Origin: Clostridia bacterium
GTDB lineage: Bacteria; Bacillota; Clostridia; Oscillospirales; CAG-272
Assembly: GCA_017453405.1 (NCBI GenBank)
Contig: JAFTKF010000148.1
Location: forward strand, 1-37,085
Direction: 5' to 3'
Length of the DNA: 37,085 nucleotides
This document shows, piece after piece, positions 1,944 through 25,011 of this stretch. The position numbers and the translations under genes were made by a program. Numbering within the stretch: position 1 is the stretch's first letter; each line of letters starts with the position of its first letter. The notes under the pieces were generated by a model. That model did not search any database and was not told where the DNA came from. It saw nothing but the letters and a program-made list of their open reading frames with translations.

Positions 1944-1972
1944 TTGACCGCAGGGGGATTTTGTTGTATAAT
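1944..1972 (+). promoter_or_regulatory. Sigma-70-type promoter TTGACC-17-TATAAT upstream of the sigma/serpin operon
   Basis: ttgacc at 1944-1949, 17-nt spacer, tataat at 1967-1972. This implies a leader of about 155 nt. Confidence 0.5.
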
Positions 1973-2132
1973 GAAAAGGGCGACAGTAGTGTTATGCTTG
2001 CTTTTTTGGTACAGTGCGCTATGATGAACATAGTAAGAATTTTAAAAATTTTCAAAAATCCGTGACCAACGGTGATTTTTTGCGATAGATAGGGTGAGGG
2101 GCAATCGCCGAAACCATTGGGAGGTATAGAGA

Positions 2133-2687
2133 ATGGAAGATCACGAAATCATCGCATTGTATGAAGCGCGCAATACCGATGCGATCGAAAAGACCCGCGA
2201 AAAATACGGCAAGCTTTGCTATCGGGTCGCTTATCATCTTTTGCATTCGCGTGAGGATGCCGAGGAGTGCGAAAACGATGCCTATCTGGATGCTTGGCAC
2301 GCAATTCCTCCCCAAAAGCCCGATCCCTTGTCGGCGTTTATGGCAATGCTGTCGCGACGCCGTGCGCTGGATCGTTACCGTAAGCGGACTGCTGAAAAAC
2401 GGCAGTATGTCTGTCTTTCACTTGCCGAACTGGATGAATGTATTCCCGACGGCAGGGCGTTCGACGAGACACTTTCGGAAAAGACACTTGTTGATATTCT
2501 CAATCGCTTTTTAAAAGAGCTGGACGAAGAGGAATGCGACATCTTTCTGCGCCGCTATTGGTATATGGATAACATCAAGGCAATTGCGCTTCGTTATGGC
2601 TATGGGCTGAGCCGCGTGAAAATGATTCTGAAACGCACGCGGGAGAAGCTTCTCAAAACGCTTGAAAGGGAGGGTATTTTCATATGA
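2133..2687 (+). CDS. RNA polymerase sigma-70 family factor, ECF-like (regions 2 and 4)
   Basis: 184 aa. RBS GGGAGG lies 8 nt upstream. Region-2-like segment EDAEECENDAYLDAWHAI; region-4 HTH DNIKAIALRYGYGLSRVKMILKRTREKL. Confidence 0.85.
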   Translation: MEDHEIIALYEARNTDAIEKTREKYGKLCYRVAYHLLHSREDAEECENDAYLDAWHAIPPQKPDPLSAFMAMLSRRRALDRYRKRTAEKRQYVCLSLAELDECIPDGRAFDETLSEKTLVDILNRFLKELDEEECDIFLRRYWYMDNIKAIALRYGYGLSRVKMILKRTREKLLKTLEREGIFI

Positions 2688-4108
2688 AATCCGATACATT
2701 ACAAAATGCACTGGGCGCGATCGATCCCGCTCTCGTTGCCCGTGCCGATCAAATGCCGAAGCGAGCGAGAAAACGCAAGCTTCGCATGGCATCGCTCGTC
2801 GCGGCAATGCTTGCGCTTGCCATCGGGCTTGGCGCGATCTTCGGCGGCGGCAGTGTTGTGCCGAGCCGCTACACATTGGCGGCGGCAATTTATCCCACAA
2901 TGGCACCATATCCCAAGGGGGAATGGCTGCCGGGCTTTGAATCCCGTTATGACGCGTGGCGGGACAGCATCAAAGAACGCCGCGCCTATTTCGGAAGCGG
3001 CAAGGATCTTGGCGACTTCTTTTCGCAAACCGCCTCGGCATTTCTTGCCGATAGCGGCGACGACAACCTTGTCTATTCACCGCTCAATGTCTATATGGCG
3101 CTCAGTATGCTGGCTGAGGTCACCGATACGGACACCCGCAAGGAAATCCTCACACTGCTTGGCTGTGACAGCATCGAAATGCTTCGCACCAAGGCAAACG
3201 CGATCTGGAACGCCAATTATTCCAATGACGGTGCCGTCACCAGCATTCTCGCAAGCTCACTCTGGCTGAGCGACAGCCTTTCCTACAACACCGATACCGT
3301 CAAGACGCTCGCCGAGACCTATTATGCCTCGTCCTTCAGCGGTAAAATGGGCAGTGCGGGCTATGACAAGGCATTCAGAAACTGGCTGAACGAGCAAACC
3401 GGCGGACTCTTGAAGGAGTATATCGATGAACTCAGCTTCACCCCCGAGACCCTGATGGCAATGGCGACCACCGTCTATTTCCAAGCCAAATGGGAAAATG
3501 AATTCCGCAAAAGCGAAAACCAAGACAAAATCTTTCACGCGCCGAGTGGGGATGTTACCTGCGAATTTATGCACGAGACCGAGGTCTACGGCGTTTATTA
3601 TTGGGGGGATTTGTTCTCCGCTACCCGCAAGCGCTTGGAGGACAGCGGCTATATGTGGTTGATCCTGCCCGACGAGGGTGTGACCTTCACCGAGCTTTTG
3701 CAAAGCGAAGAAGCGCTTCTGTTTCTTTCGTCAAACGGCGAGTGGGAGAACAAAAAAACGCTGAAGGTCAATCTGGCAGTTCCGAAATTCGAGGTATCAT
3801 CAAAGCTGGATCTTGCCAAAGGGCTGAAAGCCCTTGGGATCACAAGCTGTTTTGACAGCCGCAGAGCTGATTTTTCACCGCTGTTTGAGGAAGACACCGA
3901 GGTGTATCTTTCGAAGATCGAGCACGGGGCAACGGTTGCCATCGATGAAGAGGGCGTGATTGCCGCCGCGTATGTGGCAATGATGATGGCAGGGGGGGCA
4001 GAGCCACCCGAGGATGAGATCGATTTCGTTCTTGACCGTCCGTTTCTGTTTGTCATTACGGGCAGTGACGGTTTGCCGCTCTTTATCGGTACAGTTAACC
4101 TGCCTTGA
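2684..4108 (+). CDS. Membrane-anchored serpin (anti-sigma-like N-terminal tail, TM helix, extracytoplasmic serpin domain)
   Basis: The ATG overlaps the sigma stop (ATGA at 2684-2687). TM helix MASLVAAMLALAIGLGAIF covers aa 35-53. Serpin core: NLVYSPLNVYMALSMLAEVT. Reactive-centre-loop hinge EEGVIAAAYV at aa 422-431 (nt 3947-), followed by DRPFLFVI. Confidence 0.85.
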   Translation: MKSDTLQNALGAIDPALVARADQMPKRARKRKLRMASLVAAMLALAIGLGAIFGGGSVVPSRYTLAAAIYPTMAPYPKGEWLPGFESRYDAWRDSIKERRAYFGSGKDLGDFFSQTASAFLADSGDDNLVYSPLNVYMALSMLAEVTDTDTRKEILTLLGCDSIEMLRTKANAIWNANYSNDGAVTSILASSLWLSDSLSYNTDTVKTLAETYYASSFSGKMGSAGYDKAFRNWLNEQTGGLLKEYIDELSFTPETLMAMATTVYFQAKWENEFRKSENQDKIFHAPSGDVTCEFMHETEVYGVYYWGDLFSATRKRLEDSGYMWLILPDEGVTFTELLQSEEALLFLSSNGEWENKKTLKVNLAVPKFEVSSKLDLAKGLKALGITSCFDSRRADFSPLFEEDTEVYLSKIEHGATVAIDEEGVIAAAYVAMMMAGGAEPPEDEIDFVLDRPFLFVITGSDGLPLFIGTVNLP

Positions 4109-4204
4109 TGCGAATATTGACGCGTTGTGACTGGATATGGTGCGATATGGTGAAAAAGGCGAGAAAACAGGAGGCTGTAACGCTCATCTTTTCATAAAAT
4201 GTGC

Positions 4205-4233
4205 TTGACAACGGTGGGAAAATGTGCTATACT
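4205..4233 (+). promoter_or_regulatory. Consensus promoter TTGACA-17-TATACT
   Basis: ttgaca at 4205-4210 and tatact at 4228-4233, about 50 nt upstream of the 4285 start. Confidence 0.7.
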
Positions 4234-4284
4234 GTACCAAGCTACGAAATGTAGCCTAAAACAGAATTCACAAGGAGAAGTACA

Positions 4285-4860
4285 ATGAAAAAATTACTTT
4301 GCACACTTGCTGTTCTGGTGCTCTTAGTCGGTACGCTCGTTGTTATGAGTGCTTGCGGCGGAGCAGATACGACGGCAGAAGCAACCACCACAGCACCCGT
4401 CACCACCGTTCCCGTGATCGAAGCACCGATTCCCGATGACTACACCCTGTATGACAACGGCGATATCAGCTTTGCTTATCCCGAATCGTGGGCAAAGACC
4501 GACGGCAGTACGGTACTGCTTCAGGATGCTGTCACCGGCAACAACATCACGGTGGTCTATGAAGCGAAGAACCCCATTTACGCAACGCTTGACCTCGATG
4601 CTTACAACGAGTCCTTCAAGCCTGCATTTGAAGCAATGGGTATGACGATCACCGACGCGGCGGTTGCACAGACCGAAAACGCTTCCGGTCTTGCCATCAC
4701 CAAGATCAGCCACACCGCCACGATGTCGGGCGTGACGATGAAGCAGACAATGTACATCGCAACGGTAGGCACGAAGTCGTATACCGTAACGGTTACCGAA
4801 GTCAAAGCCGACAGCACGCTGGTATCGACAGTATTCGACACCCTGAAAGAAGTTAAATAA
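4285..4860 (+). CDS. Lipoprotein of unknown function
   Basis: RBS AAGGAG. MKKLLCTLAVLVLLVGTLVVMSACGG carries a lipobox and is followed by a Thr-rich linker. The gene has its own promoter and terminator. Confidence 0.7.
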   Translation: MKKLLCTLAVLVLLVGTLVVMSACGGADTTAEATTTAPVTTVPVIEAPIPDDYTLYDNGDISFAYPESWAKTDGSTVLLQDAVTGNNITVVYEAKNPIYATLDLDAYNESFKPAFEAMGMTITDAAVAQTENASGLAITKISHTATMSGVTMKQTMYIATVGTKSYTVTVTEVKADSTLVSTVFDTLKEVK

Positions 4861-4861
4861 C

Positions 4862-4899
4862 AAAAATCAACCGCTGTGCTTGCATAGCGGTTGATTTTT
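4862..4899 (+). terminator. Rho-independent terminator
   Basis: aaaaatcaaccgct (4862-4875) pairs with agcggttgattttt (4886-4899), and the 3' arm ends in a T-run. Confidence 0.75.
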
Positions 4900-4919
4900 G
4901 CATCGGGATATGGTATACT
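4891..4919 (+). promoter_or_regulatory. Promoter TTGATT-17-TATACT with an extended -10 (TGG), for the TIR gene
   Basis: ttgatt at 4891-4896 overlaps the 3' arm of the terminator. tatact at 4914-4919. Confidence 0.6.
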
Positions 4920-4939
4920 GAAGAAAAGGGGGCGATGGG

Positions 4940-5947
4940 ATGTTATATATCATTTACGGCTTAACTTCGGTTGTTGGCAAGGTCAGTCGACAGTATTTTA
5001 TGGGTCGCGGCATCAAGCAGATTGAAAAAATCACGTTTGAGACCGAAAACGTGCGTGTGCAACCGAGTGACGGGATTCTGCGCCGTGCGAAGAGTGAAAA
5101 AGAGGTCAGAGCCTGCGATTACGTTTATGAAAATCACGGCAGACTGGTGGGCTTCACGATGACGCAGATCGAAGAAGCGATTTCGGGCAGGCAGGATGCG
5201 TTTTTGACCTTTTCGTCCTATGACCTGTCATTTTTACGCGAGATCAAGGATGCCTGCGGCGAGCACGTGGCGATCATCTATGCGTTTTTGGAGGATGAAG
5301 CCCTGAAACGCCTGACCGATGCCATCGACACCGATGACGGGCAGAAAAGAGAACGCCTTCTGATGGGTCGCGCCATCAAGGAGCGCTATCTTGCCGAGCG
5401 CGAGCTGTTTGACGAGACGGTGATCTACTGCGGAGAAGATACGCAGTTCGATCTGGAAAGCCTGAAGGGGCAGTATGCACATATTATTCAGAAGTATAAG
5501 GGGCTTGAAAAAGAGCCGGTCCCTCTGCCGTACAAGGGCAACAAGCCCTATATTTTCGTCAGCTACGCGCGGGATGACAGCGACCGTGTGATTCCGTATC
5601 TGCGTATTTTGCAGAAGCGCGGCTGTCGCATCTGGTATGACAAAGGCATCAAAGCAGGCGATAACTGGATGACAACGCTGGCAATGAAGATCAAGGGCTG
5701 TGCGCAGTATCTTTTGTTCTCCTCCGAGATCTCAACGAAGTCAGTCTGGACACGCCGCGAAGCCTCGCGCGCCCTGCAATACCCTGAGCTTTCGATTCTG
5801 ACCGTGCGTATGGACAACGCCCGTTTTGACGAGGGTCTTGAATGGGGTCTTCAGGAATATCAGCAGCTCTTTATGAACGACCCCGACTTCGAATCCGATC
5901 TTCTGGAAAGCATCTCCGATGAAGTCATCGAACGAATCGGCGACTGA
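4940..5947 (+). CDS. TIR-domain protein with a degenerate guanylate-kinase-like N-terminal domain
   Basis: 335 aa. The TIR domain spans aa ~203-312: KPYIFVSYARDDSDRVIPYLRILQKRGCRIWYDKGIKAGDNW...LLFSSEISTKSVWTRREASRAL. The N-domain is co-linear with guanylate kinase but carries the non-canonical loop GLTSVVGK. Confidence 0.8.
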   Translation: MLYIIYGLTSVVGKVSRQYFMGRGIKQIEKITFETENVRVQPSDGILRRAKSEKEVRACDYVYENHGRLVGFTMTQIEEAISGRQDAFLTFSSYDLSFLREIKDACGEHVAIIYAFLEDEALKRLTDAIDTDDGQKRERLLMGRAIKERYLAERELFDETVIYCGEDTQFDLESLKGQYAHIIQKYKGLEKEPVPLPYKGNKPYIFVSYARDDSDRVIPYLRILQKRGCRIWYDKGIKAGDNWMTTLAMKIKGCAQYLLFSSEISTKSVWTRREASRALQYPELSILTVRMDNARFDEGLEWGLQEYQQLFMNDPDFESDLLESISDEVIERIGD

Positions 5948-5956
5948 TACAAGTAT

Positions 5957-6001
5957 AAAACCGCATCCCGACCAATTCCCGTTGGTCGGGGTGCGGTTTT
6001 A
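5957..6001 (+). terminator. Rho-independent terminator
   Basis: aaaaccgcatcccgaccaa (5957-5975) pairs with ttggtcggggtgcggtttt (5982-6000) with one G-U wobble, followed by a T-run. Confidence 0.8.
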
Positions 6002-6032
6002 TGAGAGAGAATCAAGGAGAAGGCGGCAGGAT

Positions 6033-6054
6033 CTCGGCGCGGATATGTGGTTTT
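6033..6054 (+). repeat. Intergenic repeat A, copy 1 (ctcggcgcggatatgtggtttt)
   Basis: 21 of 22 nt identical to the reverse complement of 9158-9179. Confidence 0.8.
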
Positions 6055-6062
6055 GAAACGAA

Positions 6063-6113
6063 GATTCAATCAAAAATTACCACAGAAGCCAAAAATAAGA
6101 AAAATTGTAGGGA
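6063..6113 (+). repeat. Intergenic repeat B, copy 1 (gattcaatcaaaaattaccacagaagcc...aaaattgtaggga)
   Basis: About 50 nt, in direct orientation and roughly 85% identical by eye to 15926-15975. Confidence 0.8.
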
Positions 6114-6189
6114 TTGCGGTTGGATTTTTGTATTCCTACACCCGGAGCAAATCGGTCGCGATTACATACCCAAGTGTTGATGGGGCGCG

Positions 6190-6210
6190 GACAGAGAACG
6201 CTTGTCCCTA
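6190..6210 (-). repeat. 21-nt module tagggacaRgcgtYctctgtc, inverted copy
   Basis: The reverse complement of 6190-6210 matches 15970-15990 at 19 of 21 positions. Confidence 0.7.
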
Positions 6211-6258
6211 TCGAAAATCTTGATTTTTTCTTTTCAATTCAATTTAAAATTACCGCCT

Positions 6259-6314
6259 GAAAAACAAATGCGCCGTTTTCAAACGCTGTCAGGGGGTGAA
6301 GGTTTGAAAACGGC
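6259..6314 (-). terminator. Rho-independent terminator of the AEC transporter gene (hairpin i of repeat C)
   Basis: gccgttttcaaac (6272-6284) pairs with gtttgaaaacggc (6302-6314). On the minus strand the stem is followed by gcatttgttttt. Confidence 0.7.
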
Positions 6315-6493
6315 TGATTTTGATAAAAGATATTGTTTTTCTTGGGGTGCTTTTTGAAAAAAGCTCCCGGAGTTGTTTACAACTCCAAATCCCACAAAAA
6401 CTTTTGAAATGGGTGGCAGAGGCGGTGTGTCAGCGAAAGCTTTTGCAACAAGTGACAGAGATATTGTATCAGCGAAAGCTTTTGAAATGGGTG
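6266..6493 (-). repeat. Repeat C, copy 1: conserved 3'-UTR element (39-bp tandem units, hairpin ii, terminator hairpin i)
   Basis: Aligns along its length with the reverse complement of 15628-15816. The 39-bp units start at 6401, 6440 and 6479. The element begins 13 nt after the AEC stop at 6507. Confidence 0.8.
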
Positions 6494-6506
6494 TTTCGGT
6501 CGGGTT

Positions 6507-7496
6507 TTACGCGAGGACGCCCAGGTAGCGGAGGAGGAAGGTGGCGAGAAAGACGGTGAAGGCGGAAACGATCGTGGTGAAAATGACGATCTGACCGGCG
6601 AGGGCAGTGTCGCTTTTCATTTCCTGCGCCATAGCAACACTGGATACGGCGACGGGTGTGGCAAAAACCGCAACGAGTGAGGCGAACTCCGCGCCGCCAA
6701 AGCTGTCGCGGAAGAAGGCATAGGCGATGCCAAGTCCTGCGGCGGGGACAACAATGCCGCGGATCACGGTTGCGAACAGGATCTCCTTTTTGTATTTCGA
6801 AACCGAGGAAAATTCAAACTGTGCGCCGAGCACGAGAAGCGCCATTGGCGTGGCAACACGCGAGAGGTATTCGAGAAGCGTATACAGCGGTGCGATGTCG
6901 GTTAGACGGAAGCGGATATCCGCAAGTACAAACAGCTTGCGCACAAGCAGTGTGACAAGTCCGACAAAAATGCTGATGATCAGGGGATTTCTGACAATAT
7001 CCAATACGATCTCCCGTACCGAGACCTTTTTGCCGTCCTTGTGAAAGAGGGACAGACTGATCACGCCGAGGATATTATACGTTGGCACGATCGCTGCCGA
7101 CAACAGCGAAGCCGCAATAGCGCCTTCTTCACCGAACAGCGCGGTCGCAAGCGGAATGCCGACCAGTGCGTAGTTGGAGCGGAATGTTCCCTGCAAAAGC
7201 GGACCGCGATGCTCGGCATCCTTGGTGATGAGCATCACGAGCAATGCGCCCACAAGAAAGATCACAGCGGTGAACACCGTGGCATACAGCACATAACCGA
7301 GATTCACAGCGGCAAGATTGCCGATTCCGTAGATATTCAAAAACAGCATCGCGGGCAAAAACACGCGAAAGACAAGCTTATTGGCAGCTTTGGCAAAGCT
7401 TTCGGAAATAAGACCGAGCTTTTTTAAGACGTATCCCAAGAGAACGGTAAGGATGATCGGCATCACGGCGTTAATAGCGAACAGTAAGGATTCCAT
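6507..7496 (-). CDS. AEC (auxin efflux carrier) family permease
   Basis: Start chosen at MESLLFAINAVMPIILTVLLGYVLKK (ATG at 7494-7496) after RBS AAGGAGGG. The protein is polytopic throughout. The longer ORF start at 7541 would lie inside the promoter. Confidence 0.85.
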   Translation of the reverse strand: MESLLFAINAVMPIILTVLLGYVLKKLGLISESFAKAANKLVFRVFLPAMLFLNIYGIGNLAAVNLGYVLYATVFTAVIFLVGALLVMLITKDAEHRGPLLQGTFRSNYALVGIPLATALFGEEGAIAASLLSAAIVPTYNILGVISLSLFHKDGKKVSVREIVLDIVRNPLIISIFVGLVTLLVRKLFVLADIRFRLTDIAPLYTLLEYLSRVATPMALLVLGAQFEFSSVSKYKKEILFATVIRGIVVPAAGLGIAYAFFRDSFGGAEFASLVAVFATPVAVSSVAMAQEMKSDTALAGQIVIFTTIVSAFTVFLATFLLRYLGVLA

Positions 7497-7529
7497 ATGC
7501 CCTCCTTTTTCAAAAGCTTTGATAGCAAA

Positions 7530-7558
7530 AGTATAGCACATCGGGTGCTGTTTGTCAA
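7530..7558 (-). promoter_or_regulatory. Consensus promoter TTGACA-17-TATACT for the AEC gene
   Basis: On the minus strand, ttgaca is the complement of 7553-7558 and tatact is the complement of 7530-7535. Confidence 0.7.
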
Positions 7559-7591
7559 GAATTCACGAAAAAGACTTGATTTGACAAACAG
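7548..7591. repeat. Perfect 11-bp inverted repeat ctgtttgtcaa / ttgacaaacag covering both divergent -35 boxes
   Basis: 7548-7558 is the reverse complement of 7581-7591, with 22 nt between them. Confidence 0.85.
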
Positions 7592-20830: not shown

Positions 20831-23770
20831 ATGGATCTCAGAACCGCTTTGCCAAACGGCTCGCAGTTACAGTTTCCCTCAATGACGGTAACGCTGGAAT
20901 GCGAGGTCGGGCGTGGCTCTAATGCCATCGTATACCGAGGAACGTATCCCGATCTGCAAAGCCATACGCTTCATCATATTCTGATTAAAGAACTCTTTCC
21001 CCTTCATCCCGAGGCAAGGATCTACCGAACCGAGGATGGCTCGCTTTGCTATGCGGAGGCTGAGGACTTTTTTCGCTTTCACAAGCTGAGCTTTGAGAAA
21101 GGCAATACCGTCCATCTGAAGATCTTATCGCACAGTCCCGACGGCGCAGGCGGCAATGTCAATACCTTCTCTTATAACCGCACGCTGTATACGGTGCTGC
21201 AGTATAACGGCGGCAGAAGTCTTGCCGACGAGCTTGACGCCCATACCTTCACACTCGCGCAGGTCGTCAAAGCGATGAAAGGCATTTTGTACGCGCTGAG
21301 GGATTTCCACCAAAACGGCTTTCTTCATCTGGATATCGCGCCCGACAATATTATGCTTCTCGGCACAAATGAGCGCGAGCGCATTATGCTGATCGATTAT
21401 AACAGCGCCATGGAGCAGTCGGTATGGCAAACGCATTTCAGTATCAAGCAAGGCTATTCCGCCCCCGAGGTACAGCGCGGCGATGTCGCCGCCTTTACCC
21501 CTGCCACCGATCTCTATTCGGTTGCCGCCGTCTTTTTCAGATGCATCAGGGGATATGCGCTTCAGCCCTTTGAAGTCCACCGGAAAACGCCCCCTGCCGT
21601 TTCTCACTGCAAGATCCTGCAGGGCTTGCCCGAGACCTGCATCAGTATGGTCAAAGAGATCCTGTATCGCGGCTTATCCGCGATCGGGGCAAGGCGCTAC
21701 GCTACCGTAGACGAAATGCTCGTTGCCTTTGAGGAGCTTGACGACCGCATCCAAGGTGTCGGCATTACCCATTGGGCGCTTTGGGAGGCAGGCAAGCGAA
21801 CCGTGCAAAGCTTGATTCAAAGCAACACCGCTCTTCGGTATCTGCGCGACGGGGAATCGCTCTTCCCTATGTTCACGCAGTCCGAGACCGATGGGCGAAA
21901 ATCAATGGATGCTTCCATCCGTGCGCTCACAGACGGCGAAAGCCATCTGTTCGTGAGTGCGCCCGGCGGTATGGGCAAAACCACCTCGATGCTTTATGCG
22001 CTTTTGCAGAGCAGTAAGCGCTATTCTCCCCAATCGCCTGCCATCGTGTATCTGTCGTTACACGGCGCTTGCGCGGATTCTCATACCGTTACCGATAAAA
22101 TTCTTGAAAATCTTCACTTCAAAGCCAATGTTCAAAACTACCGTGAGGCGCGTCACGCACTGCACCAACTGCTGACAAAGCCCTTGGTGCACGACGGCGG
22201 TACACGCCCTTGTGTCGTACTGTTCCTTGACGGGCTGAACGAAGTCAGCGAAGGCGTTTCCTATCTTCTTGACGAGATCGCCTCGCTTGCAAGGCTTGAC
22301 GGCATCCGACTGTACATCACCTCGCGCACCGACTGCGCGCTTGAGGGCTTTCGTCACCTGCAGCTCTCACCTCTCACGCTTGGCGAGGTACAGACCGTCC
22401 TCACACGCCATCACTTGCTGATGCCCGATTCCCCCACGATGCAAGAGCTTTTGAGAACACCGATCATGCTTTCGATGTTTCTCGGGCTTTCCGAGCAAAA
22501 CGGCACACAGCCGCAGGCAAAAAGCGGCGAGGAGCTGGTGGAAGCCTATCTCGACTCTCTTGTTCAGAAAGAGCTTGCCACTCTGCCCGAGGACAGCTCC
22601 CTGCGCCTGAAGATCGAAGTCGCCGTACAGCTTGTGCTTCCGAGAATTGCCGCAAGGCTTCAGAAATCGGGACTGCCCTGCGACGATGCCGCGCTGTTCA
22701 AGGAAAGCGCCGCCGCGTATCGCCTGATCCGCTCGCCCCTTCTCATTAAAGCCTTTCCGCAGTGGATCGGACACAAACGCACGATCCTCGACGGGATCGA
22801 ATCCGCCGACGACTGGTATGATATCCTTGTACGGAAATTACTGTGGCAACGGCTCGGACTGCTGATCAAAAACGAGCAAGGGCAATATGTGCTCGCGCAT
22901 CAGATCATCACCGACCATCTCGCGGCGGGGCATACCGCCATAAAAAAAAGGATTGTTCGCTATCAGGCGATCAAGCACAGCCTGATCGCTGTCATTTGCC
23001 TTGTGCTTGCGGGAGCGATCGCCCTCGCCTGTGTGAAGAGCGCTCCCGACCCCGCCATTCCCTATCAGGAATCTTACGCCATAACGGTATTGACCGACGC
23101 ATTGAACGCCTATCAGGTGTCAAGCCTGCAGTACAGCGCGATCCGCAAGCTGACCGATGCCCTTGCCGAAACGCCCGAGGCGTATGCCGCATCCCTTGCG
23201 GAATATGAGCATTCGTCAAAGTTTATCAGCGCCAACCTGCCCTCCGGCGCCTATCAGAGCCGAGTCGAGCTGCTTCTTGCAAGCGGCGAGGTGTTTGAAT
23301 GGACACAGCAGGAGCTGCAAACCGAAGAATATCTCCAATTATTCACCCTGATCGAAGAACGAGAGGTGCAATATGCCGATATCGTAGGCGCGTTTTCGTA
23401 TATGATGCACGATGATACCGTCTTTTCAAAATACGGCGAGGCGTATACAAAAACGGTGTCGGACCTCATCGAGCTTGATGCCGAGATCACCGCTACCCTG
23501 TATGCCATCGCCTGCCGCGCCCATTTGTACGCGGCAATGGATGCCTTTTCGCAAAGCGGCGACGAGGTCAAAGCAATGCACGTCAACAGCTGGACTGCCG
23601 TTTTAAGCGCAACCCATCCGATCAACGACCGTGTTCCCACCGAGGAAAGCCCCATTGCCTTACGCGACCGCTTGCAGAACCTTATGGGAAAACGAAAGGA
23701 TCAATACCTTAATTTACAAAGCCAAGGGGCTTATATTCTCTATCAAAATCAAAAGGAGACACCATCATGA
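20831..23770 (+). CDS. Protein kinase / NACHT (STAND) NTPase / TM helix / extracytoplasmic C-terminal domain protein
   Basis: RBS AGGAGG. Kinase motifs: VGRGSNAIVY, ILIKE, HLDIAPDN, DYN, SAPE. NACHT motifs: SAPGGMGKTT, VVLFLDGLNE, YITSR, LLRTPIMLSMF. TM helix SLIAVICLVLAGAIALACV at aa 717-735 (nt 22979-23035). Confidence 0.85.
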   Translation: MDLRTALPNGSQLQFPSMTVTLECEVGRGSNAIVYRGTYPDLQSHTLHHILIKELFPLHPEARIYRTEDGSLCYAEAEDFFRFHKLSFEKGNTVHLKILSHSPDGAGGNVNTFSYNRTLYTVLQYNGGRSLADELDAHTFTLAQVVKAMKGILYALRDFHQNGFLHLDIAPDNIMLLGTNERERIMLIDYNSAMEQSVWQTHFSIKQGYSAPEVQRGDVAAFTPATDLYSVAAVFFRCIRGYALQPFEVHRKTPPAVSHCKILQGLPETCISMVKEILYRGLSAIGARRYATVDEMLVAFEELDDRIQGVGITHWALWEAGKRTVQSLIQSNTALRYLRDGESLFPMFTQSETDGRKSMDASIRALTDGESHLFVSAPGGMGKTTSMLYALLQSSKRYSPQSPAIVYLSLHGACADSHTVTDKILENLHFKANVQNYREARHALHQLLTKPLVHDGGTRPCVVLFLDGLNEVSEGVSYLLDEIASLARLDGIRLYITSRTDCALEGFRHLQLSPLTLGEVQTVLTRHHLLMPDSPTMQELLRTPIMLSMFLGLSEQNGTQPQAKSGEELVEAYLDSLVQKELATLPEDSSLRLKIEVAVQLVLPRIAARLQKSGLPCDDAALFKESAAAYRLIRSPLLIKAFPQWIGHKRTILDGIESADDWYDILVRKLLWQRLGLLIKNEQGQYVLAHQIITDHLAAGHTAIKKRIVRYQAIKHSLIAVICLVLAGAIALACVKSAPDPAIPYQESYAITVLTDALNAYQVSSLQYSAIRKLTDALAETPEAYAASLAEYEHSSKFISANLPSGAYQSRVELLLASGEVFEWTQQELQTEEYLQLFTLIEEREVQYADIVGAFSYMMHDDTVFSKYGEAYTKTVSDLIELDAEITATLYAIACRAHLYAAMDAFSQSGDEVKAMHVNSWTAVLSATHPINDRVPTEESPIALRDRLQNLMGKRKDQYLNLQSQGAYILYQNQKETPS

Positions 23771-25011
23771 AGCACCGTTTTCTCGTCCTCTGCGTGCTTT
23801 TGCTTCTTTTCGCTGTGACGCTCTCCCTCGTCGCTTGCAACGATACCCCTGCGACAAGCACGCCCACCACAAGCGCGTCCTCCGTAAGCACACCCGAAAC
23901 CACCGAAGCACCCCCTTCGACAGATGCCGTCGATGAAGCCTTCCGACGCACGTTTGCCGCAGACTGGTCTAAGTATCTGGTTCACAAGGAAAGCCTGTGC
24001 CTTGATATGTCCTGGATGCTTTCGTATGTGGAAGCCTTTTATGAACAGCCAAGCCTTTCCACACTGACCAACGCAAGAGCCGCCCTCGGTTCTCTGGAAG
24101 CACATTGGGCAGAGCTCAGCTTTCCCACCTACACGCTCACGCCCGAACAGCACACCGAGCTTATCGCGGCAGGCTATGATGTGAGCGGCATATGGGAGGA
24201 AATGAATCGCTGGGAGAGCAGTATGACAGAATTTCTTGACACCTGCCAGATCCTTTTTTCCGACCTTTACTTCAACGCCTTCTTCACGCCCTCCTTTCAG
24301 GGCTGTCAAAAATATACCCAAAATGCCATCACAGGTGTGGAGATCACGCTGGAGCAATTGGCGGTATTTACCGACAACGTGATCCTTTCTCTGAAAAGCG
24401 AGACCATCAGAGACGACTTTTTGGCATTCATTCAGGAGAACACGCCTGCCGTGGCAAAGTATTTGCCCGCATTCTCCCAAACGCTTTCGGCAAATGCCGA
24501 ACGTCAGGAGGCGGTGCTCGATAAGCTGGAAGCCAATATCAACGAGCTGAACACGATCGTGGGTGAGCTTACGGTCGCGGCAGATCAGCTTGCCGATCTC
24601 TTCGCCACCAATAATATCGAACAGCTCACCGCATCGCTCGTCGATCTCGGGGACGGTTTTTGTTTCCCGCTTCCCTTCTTTGATTACAGCAAGGACACCT
24701 TCTTCTATTTCTATTCGGACGGTGACACTCAGGATATCTTCGCCCCCCAAGCACCCATCACCCTGACACCGAACCGTTTGGTGATCGAATCGGCGGTTTC
24801 CAAAGAAGACCATACAGAGTATCTTGAAATCTTACTCTTGCTCGGCTTCACCCCCGTCCTCACCGACGACAGCGATACAGCCCTCCTCTCTTACTACAAG
24901 CTTGACGACGACAACAGCGTCCTGATTGAGTGGGAAGATCAGGTGATGACCTTCATCATTGTCGGCGCGGATATTTATCCTCTCCCGCAGTACTGCTTCT
25001 ACGCTTCCTGA
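23767..25011 (+). CDS. Lipoprotein of unknown function, translationally coupled to the kinase-NACHT gene
   Basis: ATGA overlap at 23767-23770, with RBS AAGGAGA. MKHRFLVLCVLLLLFAVTLSLVAC carries a lipobox, followed by a Thr/Ser/Pro linker, then a helical region and a beta-rich tail. Confidence 0.75.
   Translation: MKHRFLVLCVLLLLFAVTLSLVACNDTPATSTPTTSASSVSTPETTEAPPSTDAVDEAFRRTFAADWSKYLVHKESLCLDMSWMLSYVEAFYEQPSLSTLTNARAALGSLEAHWAELSFPTYTLTPEQHTELIAAGYDVSGIWEEMNRWESSMTEFLDTCQILFSDLYFNAFFTPSFQGCQKYTQNAITGVEITLEQLAVFTDNVILSLKSETIRDDFLAFIQENTPAVAKYLPAFSQTLSANAERQEAVLDKLEANINELNTIVGELTVAADQLADLFATNNIEQLTASLVDLGDGFCFPLPFFDYSKDTFFYFYSDGDTQDIFAPQAPITLTPNRLVIESAVSKEDHTEYLEILLLLGFTPVLTDDSDTALLSYYKLDDDNSVLIEWEDQVMTFIIVGADIYPLPQYCFYAS

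Follow-up and report, generated by a model that had tools for sequence, protein, structure and literature searches.

An ECF-type sigma factor gene paired with a membrane-anchored serpin in Clostridia

Analysis of a 37,085-nucleotide stretch of DNA from a Clostridia bacterium (contig JAFTKF010000148.1; the whole stretch is referred to here as the window) identified a gene for an extracytoplasmic function (ECF)-type sigma factor that overlaps a downstream gene for a membrane-anchored serpin. A survey of related loci demonstrated that this sigma-serpin pairing is far beyond chance and that the serpin occupies the anti-sigma position. We hold with moderate confidence that the two genes form a module in which the 34-aa cytoplasmic tail of the serpin protein is the cognate, minimal two-helix anti-sigma element of the sigma factor. 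The most plausible reading, based like all functional statements made here on comparative genomics and modelling, is that this tail silences the sigma factor and sets it free when a protease is captured or makes a cut. A preliminary description of this DNA had proposed a protease-sensing switch of the same kind; its structural reading (an ECF sigma factor, a serpin in the anti-sigma position, a conserved pair, and a tail and transmembrane helix that recur across the sigma clade) was upheld, and its functional part stays a proposal.

Features of the gene pair are as follows.

2133..2687, + strand: ECF-type sigma factor gene, regions 2 and 4 only (Pfam, TIGR02937, PDB profile match, homologue annotation)
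2666..2673, + strand: Shine-Dalgarno-like AGGGAGGG for the serpin, within the 3' end of the sigma gene (read from sequence)
2684..2687, + strand: ATGA start/stop overlap, predicted translational coupling (sequence; alike in 53 of 55 orthologous pairs)
2684..4108, + strand: membrane-anchored serpin gene, 474 aa (Pfam, alignments, AlphaFold2, Foldseek)
2684..2785, + strand: cytoplasmic tail, aa 1-34, MKSDxLQxAxGxxDxxLxxRA and basic patch; candidate minimal anti-sigma element (conservation, co-variation)
2786..2842, + strand: single transmembrane helix, aa 35-53, N-in (hydropathy, AlphaFold2, positive-inside rule)
2843..2869, + strand: juxtamembrane linker, aa 54-62, variable in length and sequence (confidence of the model, alignment)
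2870..3025, + strand: conserved pre-serpin extension, aa 63-114 (alignment, confidence of the model)
3026..4105, + strand: serpin domain, aa 115-474 (PF00079, Foldseek)

Organization of the sigma and serpin genes

The sigma open reading frame (ORF) encodes 184 aa, and its stop codon (TGA, 2685-2687) shares the tetranucleotide ATGA with the start codon of the serpin ORF (ATG, 2684-2686); the coordinates, frames and overlap of both ORFs are as the preliminary description had placed them. The sigma protein matched Pfam Sigma70_r2 (1.1e-10) and Sigma70_r4 (2.9e-7), and Pfam returned no match to region 3 or to region 1.1. It scored 65 bits against the TIGR02937 sigma70-ECF model (cut-off 42.9), and many of its homologues are annotated with Sigma70_ECF (PF07638). 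A PDB search with the window sigma as a single sequence gave no match and a family profile was required: with a profile built from 29 orthologues the best match was B. subtilis SigW (5wuq; E 6e-13), followed by other ECF sigma factors, CnrH among them. Because it retains regions 2 and 4 only, passes the TIGR02937 cut-off and has SigW as its best solved relative, the protein is classed by its sequence as an ECF-type (group 4) sigma factor, the assignment that had been made from the letters alone. Pfam found neither a SigI-C domain in the sigma factor, which has a canonical region 4, nor an RsgI_N domain in its partner.

The serpin protein begins with MKSDTLQNALGAIDPALVARADQMPKRARKRKLR (aa 1-34), which is basic immediately before the helix, and continues into 19 hydrophobic residues, MASLVAAMLALAIGLGAIF (aa 35-53), that coincide with a helix modelled by AlphaFold2 at aa 33-52. 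Sequence, Pfam and model agree here with the earlier outline of a 34-aa tail, one transmembrane helix and a full serpin. The positive-inside rule predicts an N-in/C-out topology. Within the helix A40 and L43 are invariant and A41 is found in at least 90% of sequences, and two short tail helices (residues 5-11 and 15-22) were predicted by AlphaFold2 with low confidence. The juxtamembrane linker (aa 54-62) has a low predicted local distance difference test score (pLDDT), carries insertions of up to ~55 aa in relatives and is a candidate site-1 cleavage region. It is followed by an extension of ~52 aa (aa 63-114; YPxMAxYP...PGF..RYDAWR; pLDDT 82-88) that is common to the sigma-linked serpins and to the lipoprotein forms described below. 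This extension recalls the N-terminal extension of tengpin, which touches the A-sheet (PMC8233489), and may be an analogue of that stabilising element.

Conservation of the sigma-serpin pair

Relatives were collected from a scan of one genome per species, which gave 467 stretches, and the best 80 loci, containing 85 serpin ORFs, were analysed. The full-length architecture was found in more than 100 protein clusters with 50-64% identity, from uncultured Clostridia. The tail motif and transmembrane helix were present in 55 of the 85 serpin ORFs, and upstream of all 55 was an orthologue of the window sigma factor. A lipoprotein signal (e.g. ...LTACS, ...VGCAG) was found in 23 others, two had a plain signal peptide and three were truncated; no sigma gene preceded any of these 25 forms with a lipoprotein signal or signal peptide. 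The two remaining ORFs (loci L058 and L076) begin with a different tail (MNRYKEANDRL...) and a transmembrane helix, and they overlap by 4 bp a different, shorter ECF sigma gene whose product has no BLASTP similarity to the window sigma.

In total, a sigma gene lay directly upstream of 57/57 serpins with a tail and transmembrane helix in comparison to 0/25 of the others (Fisher p 1e-21, a value that takes the loci as independent and ignores phylogeny, from which they are not independent). Sigma-linked and sigma-less forms interleave in a neighbour-joining tree of the serpin core, with ~7 changes of state, and the sigma/serpin overlap measured 4 bp in 53 of the 55 pairs. The survey of serpin genes that follow or overlap ECF sigma genes, which the preliminary description had suggested, thus returned complete linkage for the tail-bearing forms, and the pair, whose non-conservation would have spoken against that description, recurs in 57 serpins of the best 80 loci.

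No conserved neighbouring genes were found around the related loci beyond the closest relative of the window, a sheep-colon metagenome-assembled genome (L001). Conservation therefore stops at the two genes themselves, and the idea of a more extensive operon or island was rejected on the same observation. Cultured carriers of the pair are Pseudoflavonifractor phocaeensis An507 (L047) and Flavonifractor porci P01024 (L048).

Multiple copies also occur within single loci. Two complete sigma-serpin modules stand in tandem in L023, L025 and L026 (about 2100-6580), where the sigma factor, the tail, the -35 element (GTGACC vs GTAACA) and the distal reactive-centre loop (RCL) have all diverged together, as expected for insulated channels. 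The L083 locus (3501-7567) has a single sigma gene and, after it, three consecutive serpin genes with widely different RCLs; two or more of these serpins have a tail and transmembrane helix of their own.

Association of the cytoplasmic tail with the sigma factor

Tail residues 1-22 are under stronger constraint than the serpin core, with a mean majority fraction of 0.76 in comparison to 0.70 for the core, 0.43 for the adjoining basic stretch and 0.52 for the linker. Pairwise distances (55 pairs) of the 24-aa tail followed the sigma distances (r 0.77) far more closely than the core distances (r 0.53). When the core was controlled for, sigma and tail retained a partial correlation of 0.70 (permutation p <= 0.0005), whereas sigma and core, with control for the tail, gave 0.13.

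Five more distant sigma homologues (46-51% identity) were sampled, and for four of them the downstream gene, abutting or overlapping the sigma stop, encodes a protein with the same tail motif and transmembrane helix and a non-serpin ectodomain. These four are a protein of 394 aa (MKPDDILNAIGDVDDSYIRKA...), a protein with a Big_14 domain, a protein of 343 aa on a mobile element and a protein of 165 aa. In L081 a further, divergently oriented sigma gene overlaps by 4 bp the downstream gene for a 195-aa protein with the tail and transmembrane helix, and a partner of this type was found downstream of every sigma gene of the clade that was examined. The tail with its transmembrane helix (59 aa), searched against 1.84 billion representatives, gave 17 matches at E <= 1e-3. 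Most of these were serpins or truncated serpins, but they included a 322-aa non-serpin protein (P0271) whose tail (MKSDKLQNALGKVDPALIARAD) is almost identical to that of the window. A profile of the same region, searched against a set of 5.8 billion proteins, gave ~20 short and mostly uninformative fragments, as transmembrane-like words swamped the index.

Because the tail and helix are also found on non-serpin ectodomains after paralogous sigma factors, comparison of these sequences identifies the short tail and helix as a generic partner module of this ECF clade. In addition, the second, unrelated sigma/tail cassette of L058 and L076 (type B) is fused to the same serpin ectodomain; the type-B tail had no significant Pfam or NCBIfam match to known anti-sigma families. 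Constraint, co-variation, modularity and independent recruitment together argue that the tail belongs with the sigma factor and not with the serpin.

Two of these loci deserve separate description. In L085 (1-6561) the sigma gene and the gene for the 343-aa tail-bearing protein are flanked by phage-type integrase, Mob_Pre, TnpV and NikA-like genes, and this version of the module resides on a mobile element. In L081 (679-3199, - strand) the ECF sigma gene (224 aa), the gene for the 195-aa protein, whose ectodomain linker is acidic and probably disordered, and a gene for a lipoprotein serpin (415 aa) form a three-gene operon. This operon may be an unfused relative of the sigma-serpin module, with the serpin as a downstream gene of such a sigma/partner pair.

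Serpin fold and reactive-centre loop

Profile and fold both place the protein in the serpin superfamily. Pfam PF00079 covers aa 115-473 with positions 9-369 of the 370 in the model (E 1.4e-60), and 173 PDB serpin sequences matched the window serpin at E <= 1e-10. The AlphaFold2 model of the protein (pLDDT 79.5; predicted TM-score 0.76) returned tengpin, conserpin, alpha-1-antitrypsin, CBG and PAI-1 in Foldseek, with E values of about 1e-29 to 1e-28 and TM-scores of 0.8-0.86 (target). Two features of the loop were mapped.

3947..3976, + strand: hinge, P17-P8, EEGVIAAAYV, aa 422-431 (family logo, 99 sequences)
3977..4003, + strand: distal RCL, P7-P2', AMMMAGG/AE (the slash marks the provisional P1-P1' bond), aa 432-440, with provisional P1 Gly438 at 3995-3997 (P17+16 rule, Serpin-ZX alignment)

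Across 99 aligned relatives the hinge logo, E-E-G-V-T-A-A-A-Y-T, is nearly invariant (P17 Glu, P15 Gly and P12 Ala in 99/99 and P10 Ala in 97/99, with Val or Ile at P14). Its even positions contain neither proline nor charged residues, in agreement with the consensus of inhibitory serpins, from which Tyr at P9, an odd and outward-facing position, is the sole departure among the positions compared. On this conservation the hinge is assigned to the inhibitory type, as had been suspected from the small residues of the window sequence. The length of the RCL is fixed across the family. The distal loop has variable, hydrophobic residues at P7-P3, Gly at P2 in 97/99, one of Ala, Ser or Gly at P1, Ala at P1' and a Pro-Pro pair at P3'-P4', and it is alike in sigma-linked and in lipoprotein or signal-peptide serpins.

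From the P17 Glu to the Pro of the DRPF motif (within DRPFLFVI, aa 451-458) the window loop has 31 residues, and alpha-1-antitrypsin has 27 over the same stretch. The excess of about four residues noted in the preliminary description is therefore real, and its view that P1 could not be assigned can be revised. The window loop aligns almost without gaps to that of Arabidopsis Serpin-ZX (...IKLRGLLMEEDEIDFVADHPF), which places the extra residues on the P' side, as in plant serpins, and the P17+16 rule provisionally gives Gly438 as P1, where most relatives have Ala or Ser. So small a P1 residue suggests proteases of the elastase or subtilisin type as targets. Alternative RCL sites have been reported for siropins (PMC5127057), and by analogy the Met or Leu residues at P4-P6 could be alternative cleavage sites here. 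In the AlphaFold2 model P15-P4 form an inserted strand, and latent or cleaved serpins, among them latent tengpin, latent conserpin and cleaved CBG, ranked first in Foldseek; the model is compatible with an insertion-competent loop, without being evidence of inhibition.

Promoter and autoregulation

In Bacillota, ECF promoters follow an AC-N16-CGT geometry. A family promoter of this kind (AAC-N16/17-CGT type), TGTGACC-N15/16-(G)CGTCTATA with a T-rich spacer, was found upstream of 45 of 56 sigma genes, at 24-50 nt before the sigma ATG and in one case at 66 nt; the -10 end following TGTGACC and the T-rich 15-16-nt spacer can also be rendered as (G)CGTCTATATAGGTGAAAGG. The conserved promoter that precedes the operon is also written, as a family form, TGTGACC-N15-CGTCTATA or TGTGACC-N15-CGTC. 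Upstream features in the window are listed below.

2062..2088, + strand: ECF-type promoter, -35 GTGACC (2062-2067), 15-nt T-rich spacer, -10 CGAT(AG) (2083-2088) (family consensus)
2090..2101, + strand: conserved element after the -10, TAGGGTGAGGGG in the window and TATAGGTGAAAGG in the family (~1.0-1.6 bits per position, counted at positions free of search-pattern constraint)
1944..1972, + strand: sigma-70-type promoter-like sequence, TTGACC-17-TATAAT, ~160 nt before the sigma ATG (consensus match only, 11/12)

The family pattern has a single match in the 37-kb window, and of 37 matches to a stricter pattern in 760 kb of loci, 26 lie upstream of sigma genes. Extra copies in the window and flanks were weak, atypical matches, and no regulon members were identified among them. 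Because the promoter is essentially confined to the regions upstream of sigma genes and no other target is nearby, comparison of the loci indicates that the module is very probably autoregulated; with the promoter at the operon only and neighbouring genes that are not conserved, the sole visible output is the operon itself. The sigma-70-type sequence is a possible basal promoter.

The element that follows the promoter, TATAGGTGAAAGG(A/C)C(T)TT, stands directly after the -10 CGTC, at about the predicted start of transcription. Folding the 5' leaders as a consensus gave no common RNA fold for the conserved GGTGAAAGG element, and Rfam had no match over the whole window. The GGTGAAAGG/TATAGGTGAAAGG element is a candidate operator, initial transcribed sequence or stabiliser of the 5' end.

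A proposed mechanism and its alternatives

In the proposed mechanism, the sigma factor and the serpin would be produced in coupled amounts through the ATGA overlap, and the tail would keep the sigma factor at the membrane while the serpin, anchored at the cell surface, would act as a suicide inhibitor of proteases that take a small P1 residue (elastase-like or subtilisin-like). Attacking proteases would use up or clip the ectodomain, either by capture at the RCL with its stressed-to-relaxed (S-to-R) transition or by cutting the exposed juxtamembrane linker once the inhibitor is exhausted. The remaining stub would be cleared by regulated intramembrane proteolysis, and the freed sigma factor would transcribe its own operon from TGTGACC-N15-CGTC, restocking the inhibitor as fast as it is consumed. 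Tail-sigma binding, inhibition, the protease trigger, intramembrane proteolysis and autoregulation are all steps that we infer. As the sole evident output is the operon, the sensible input would be demand for the inhibitor, and the lipoprotein forms, which are N-terminally tethered with the same RCL, indicate that tethering at this end is compatible with the function of the family.

A more specific version, in which the suicide mechanism is itself the signal, is possible and is put forward tentatively. Here covalent protease capture and the S-to-R change would shift the extension or the linker, permit site-1 and site-2 cleavage of the anchor and release the sigma factor. If true, each consumed inhibitor would give a one-for-one transcriptional pulse that replaces it, the serpin would be the first to act as a transmembrane receptor and the first protease-specific ECF input, and paralogous modules would be separate channels for different proteases.

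Several observations weigh against the proposal that the tail silences the sigma factor and a protease relieves it. The co-variation of tail and sigma factor could come in part from the physical adjacency of their coding regions, because recombination breakpoints would fall more often between tail and core, and binding of the sigma factor by the tail is argued from co-occurrence, co-variation and modularity. The tail had only sub-threshold Pfam matches (DUF3040, ETRAMP and DUF7396), its match to the 'antisigma' NCBIfam model NF052375 reached 14 bits (cut-off 100) and lay over the transmembrane region, AlphaFold2 confidence is low over aa 1-59, and 34 aa compare with an average of ~101 aa for class I anti-sigma domains (PMC7406223). 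In the ectodomain, P14 Val and P9 Tyr deviate from the textbook hinge. The RCL is conserved and not diversifying, and it is identical in the sigma-less lipoprotein forms, so that the serpin clearly works without signalling. The window annotation includes no protease genes near the operon, and the regulon search was confined to the +/-5 kb flanks of the loci.

Some of these observations would be expected if the tail were a true anti-sigma element and the serpin its cargo or output, in a homeostatic loop or in response to a generic envelope signal that acts through intramembrane proteolysis, with no direct role for a protease. This we consider rather unlikely. It would account for lipoprotein forms that carry the same RCL without any sigma factor, for the small tail-bearing protein between sigma factor and lipoprotein serpin in L081, where sensing and inhibition appear separable, and for the single sigma gene followed by several tail-bearing serpins in L083. 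It fits less well with an operon that is the only visible target of the promoter, which makes inhibitor demand the natural input, with the recruitment of two unrelated sigma/tail cassettes to one serpin ectodomain, and with the tandem duplicates, whose RCLs diverge along with the sigma factor, the tail and the -35 element.

The shortness of the tail, its low-confidence model and its lack of homology to known anti-sigma domains would also suit a mere signal-anchor that tethers the serpin, with the sigma factor transcribing the operon without binding the tail and co-inheritance following from operon structure. A plain anchor, however, does not need a conserved 22-aa motif that is better conserved than the serpin core and tracks the sigma clade over unrelated ectodomains. 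The sigma factor of the other clade comes with a different tail, and serpins that are only tethered use a lipobox and then have no sigma gene, which makes this alternative improbable.

A non-inhibitory ectodomain, serving as a binding or sensor domain for a non-protease ligand or as a chaperone-like surface protein, is very improbable: such serpins occur in other lineages, and P14 Val and P9 Tyr are unusual and the AlphaFold2 model is loop-inserted and latent-like, but the P17 Glu, P15 Gly and P12-P10 Ala-Ala-Ala residues are nearly invariant, the loop length is fixed, the even hinge positions have no proline or charge, and several of the closest solved relatives (Serpin-ZX, tengpin and conserpin) are inhibitors. 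Among gut Clostridial serpins, the characterised siropins inhibit elastase-type proteases (PMC5127057).

Relation to known systems

The functionally nearest precedent is SigV/RsiV of B. subtilis and Clostridioides difficile (PMC4183432, PMC5014341, PMC6066255, PMC9044953), in which an ECF sigma factor is held by a single-pass anti-sigma factor whose ectodomain directly engages a host threat, lysozyme, and the output counters the same threat; RsiV thus doubles as anti-sigma factor and lysozyme receptor (PMC4183432, PMC5014341). Its activation proceeds by site-1 cleavage and then intramembrane proteolysis, steps that are proposed for the sigma-serpin module by analogy. The RsiV ectodomain is a lysozyme-binding fold, whereas that of the window protein is a serpin in which Pfam detected no RsiV-like domain, and the cytoplasmic part of RsiV has no detectable similarity to the window tail. 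RsiV binds its ligand reversibly, whereas the serpin would be covalently consumed.

The SigI/RsgI systems of cellulolytic clostridia (mentioned in PMC7826278) resemble the present family in having membrane anti-sigma factors with swappable ectodomains and many paralogous pairs per genome. SigI-like sigma factors differ in that SigI-C takes the place of region 4, in contrast to the window sigma, an ECF factor with regions 2 and 4, and RsgI has an N-terminal domain of its own, whereas no RsgI model recognised the window tail.

Class I anti-sigma factors (ASDI: RsiW, RseA, zf-HC2, RskA) have a four-helix N-terminal domain of ~50-130 aa, with a mean of 101 aa (PMC7406223), to which the window tail does not conform. 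CnrY (class II) is a very short two-helix anti-sigma element that touches regions 4 and 2 of its sigma factor, CnrH being among the PDB matches of the sigma profile. The two short helices predicted with low confidence for the window tail, ahead of its transmembrane helix, recall CnrY in outline, a likeness of architecture only that does not assign the tail to class II.

Among bacterial serpins, that of Bifidobacterium breve and B. longum (PMC8201313) is induced by proteases in a gut commensal and forms an autoregulated loop, like the proposed module. Sensing in bifidobacteria is the task of a histidine kinase with its response regulator, and their serpin is secreted as a protein apart, whereas here the serpin is fused to a presumed ECF signalling element. 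Siropins 1 and 2, tengpin and the cellulosomal PinA/PinB (PMC5127057, PMC8201313, PMC8233489) belong to the same superfamily and have the same kind of hinge, and tengpin, a top match in sequence and structure, also has an N-terminal extension like the window family. Cellulosomal serpins are likewise tethered at the surface, and the known tethering is by dockerin or lipid and not by an anti-sigma-like anchor; none of these serpins has been described with a cytoplasmic tail and transmembrane helix or as translationally coupled to a sigma factor. Searches of an open-access and preprint library found nothing that links serpins to anti-sigma factors, ECF signalling or membrane anchoring. Many gut Clostridia have this two-gene unit, with a serpin in place of the usual anti-sigma factor, an arrangement that suggests a mode of protease sensing and inhibitor replenishment not described before, as a variant of the ECF sigma/anti-sigma theme.

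For ECF signalling the module would, if the proposal is true, add a suicide protease inhibitor as a new input domain, together with an uncurated and very short partner module (~22 conserved residues and a transmembrane helix), with swappable ectodomains, for a whole clade of Clostridial ECF sigma factors. Among serpins, we found none described that is integrated in the membrane and coupled to transcription, and this one would be the first. Only four gut microbial serpins had been characterised according to a 2021 review (PMC8201313), and the balance of gut proteases and serpins has been linked to inflammatory bowel disease (PMC8201313, PMC5127057). Abundant and largely uncultured Oscillospiraceae and related commensals could use such modules to sense luminal host or microbial proteases and adjust their surface shield. 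A compact and apparently autoregulated module with insulated paralogues is also a possible protease-responsive genetic switch.

Genomic context of the window

The window derives from a plant-glycan-degrading gut Clostridium; along with esterase genes it has genes of the types GH5, GH43, GH78 (two) and GH32. The gene two positions downstream of the serpin (4940-5947, + strand) encodes 335 aa, with a TIR_2 domain at the C-terminus (aa 205-318; E 2.5e-14) and an N-terminal half without an assigned domain; a phage-defence context based on this adjacent gene was rejected, as the TIR neighbour is not conserved in related loci. Further downstream (20831-25011, + strand) a 979-aa protein, whose protein-kinase domain is confined to the N-terminus, is followed by an overlapping 414-aa ORF without a Pfam match. 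Just upstream of the module, on the opposite strand (1001-1726, - strand), a 177-aa ORF combines a cohesin domain with a Listeria-Bacteroides repeat and adjoins a 59-aa ORF with a lipoprotein-like signal; the two may be one gene split by a stop codon or a sequencing error.

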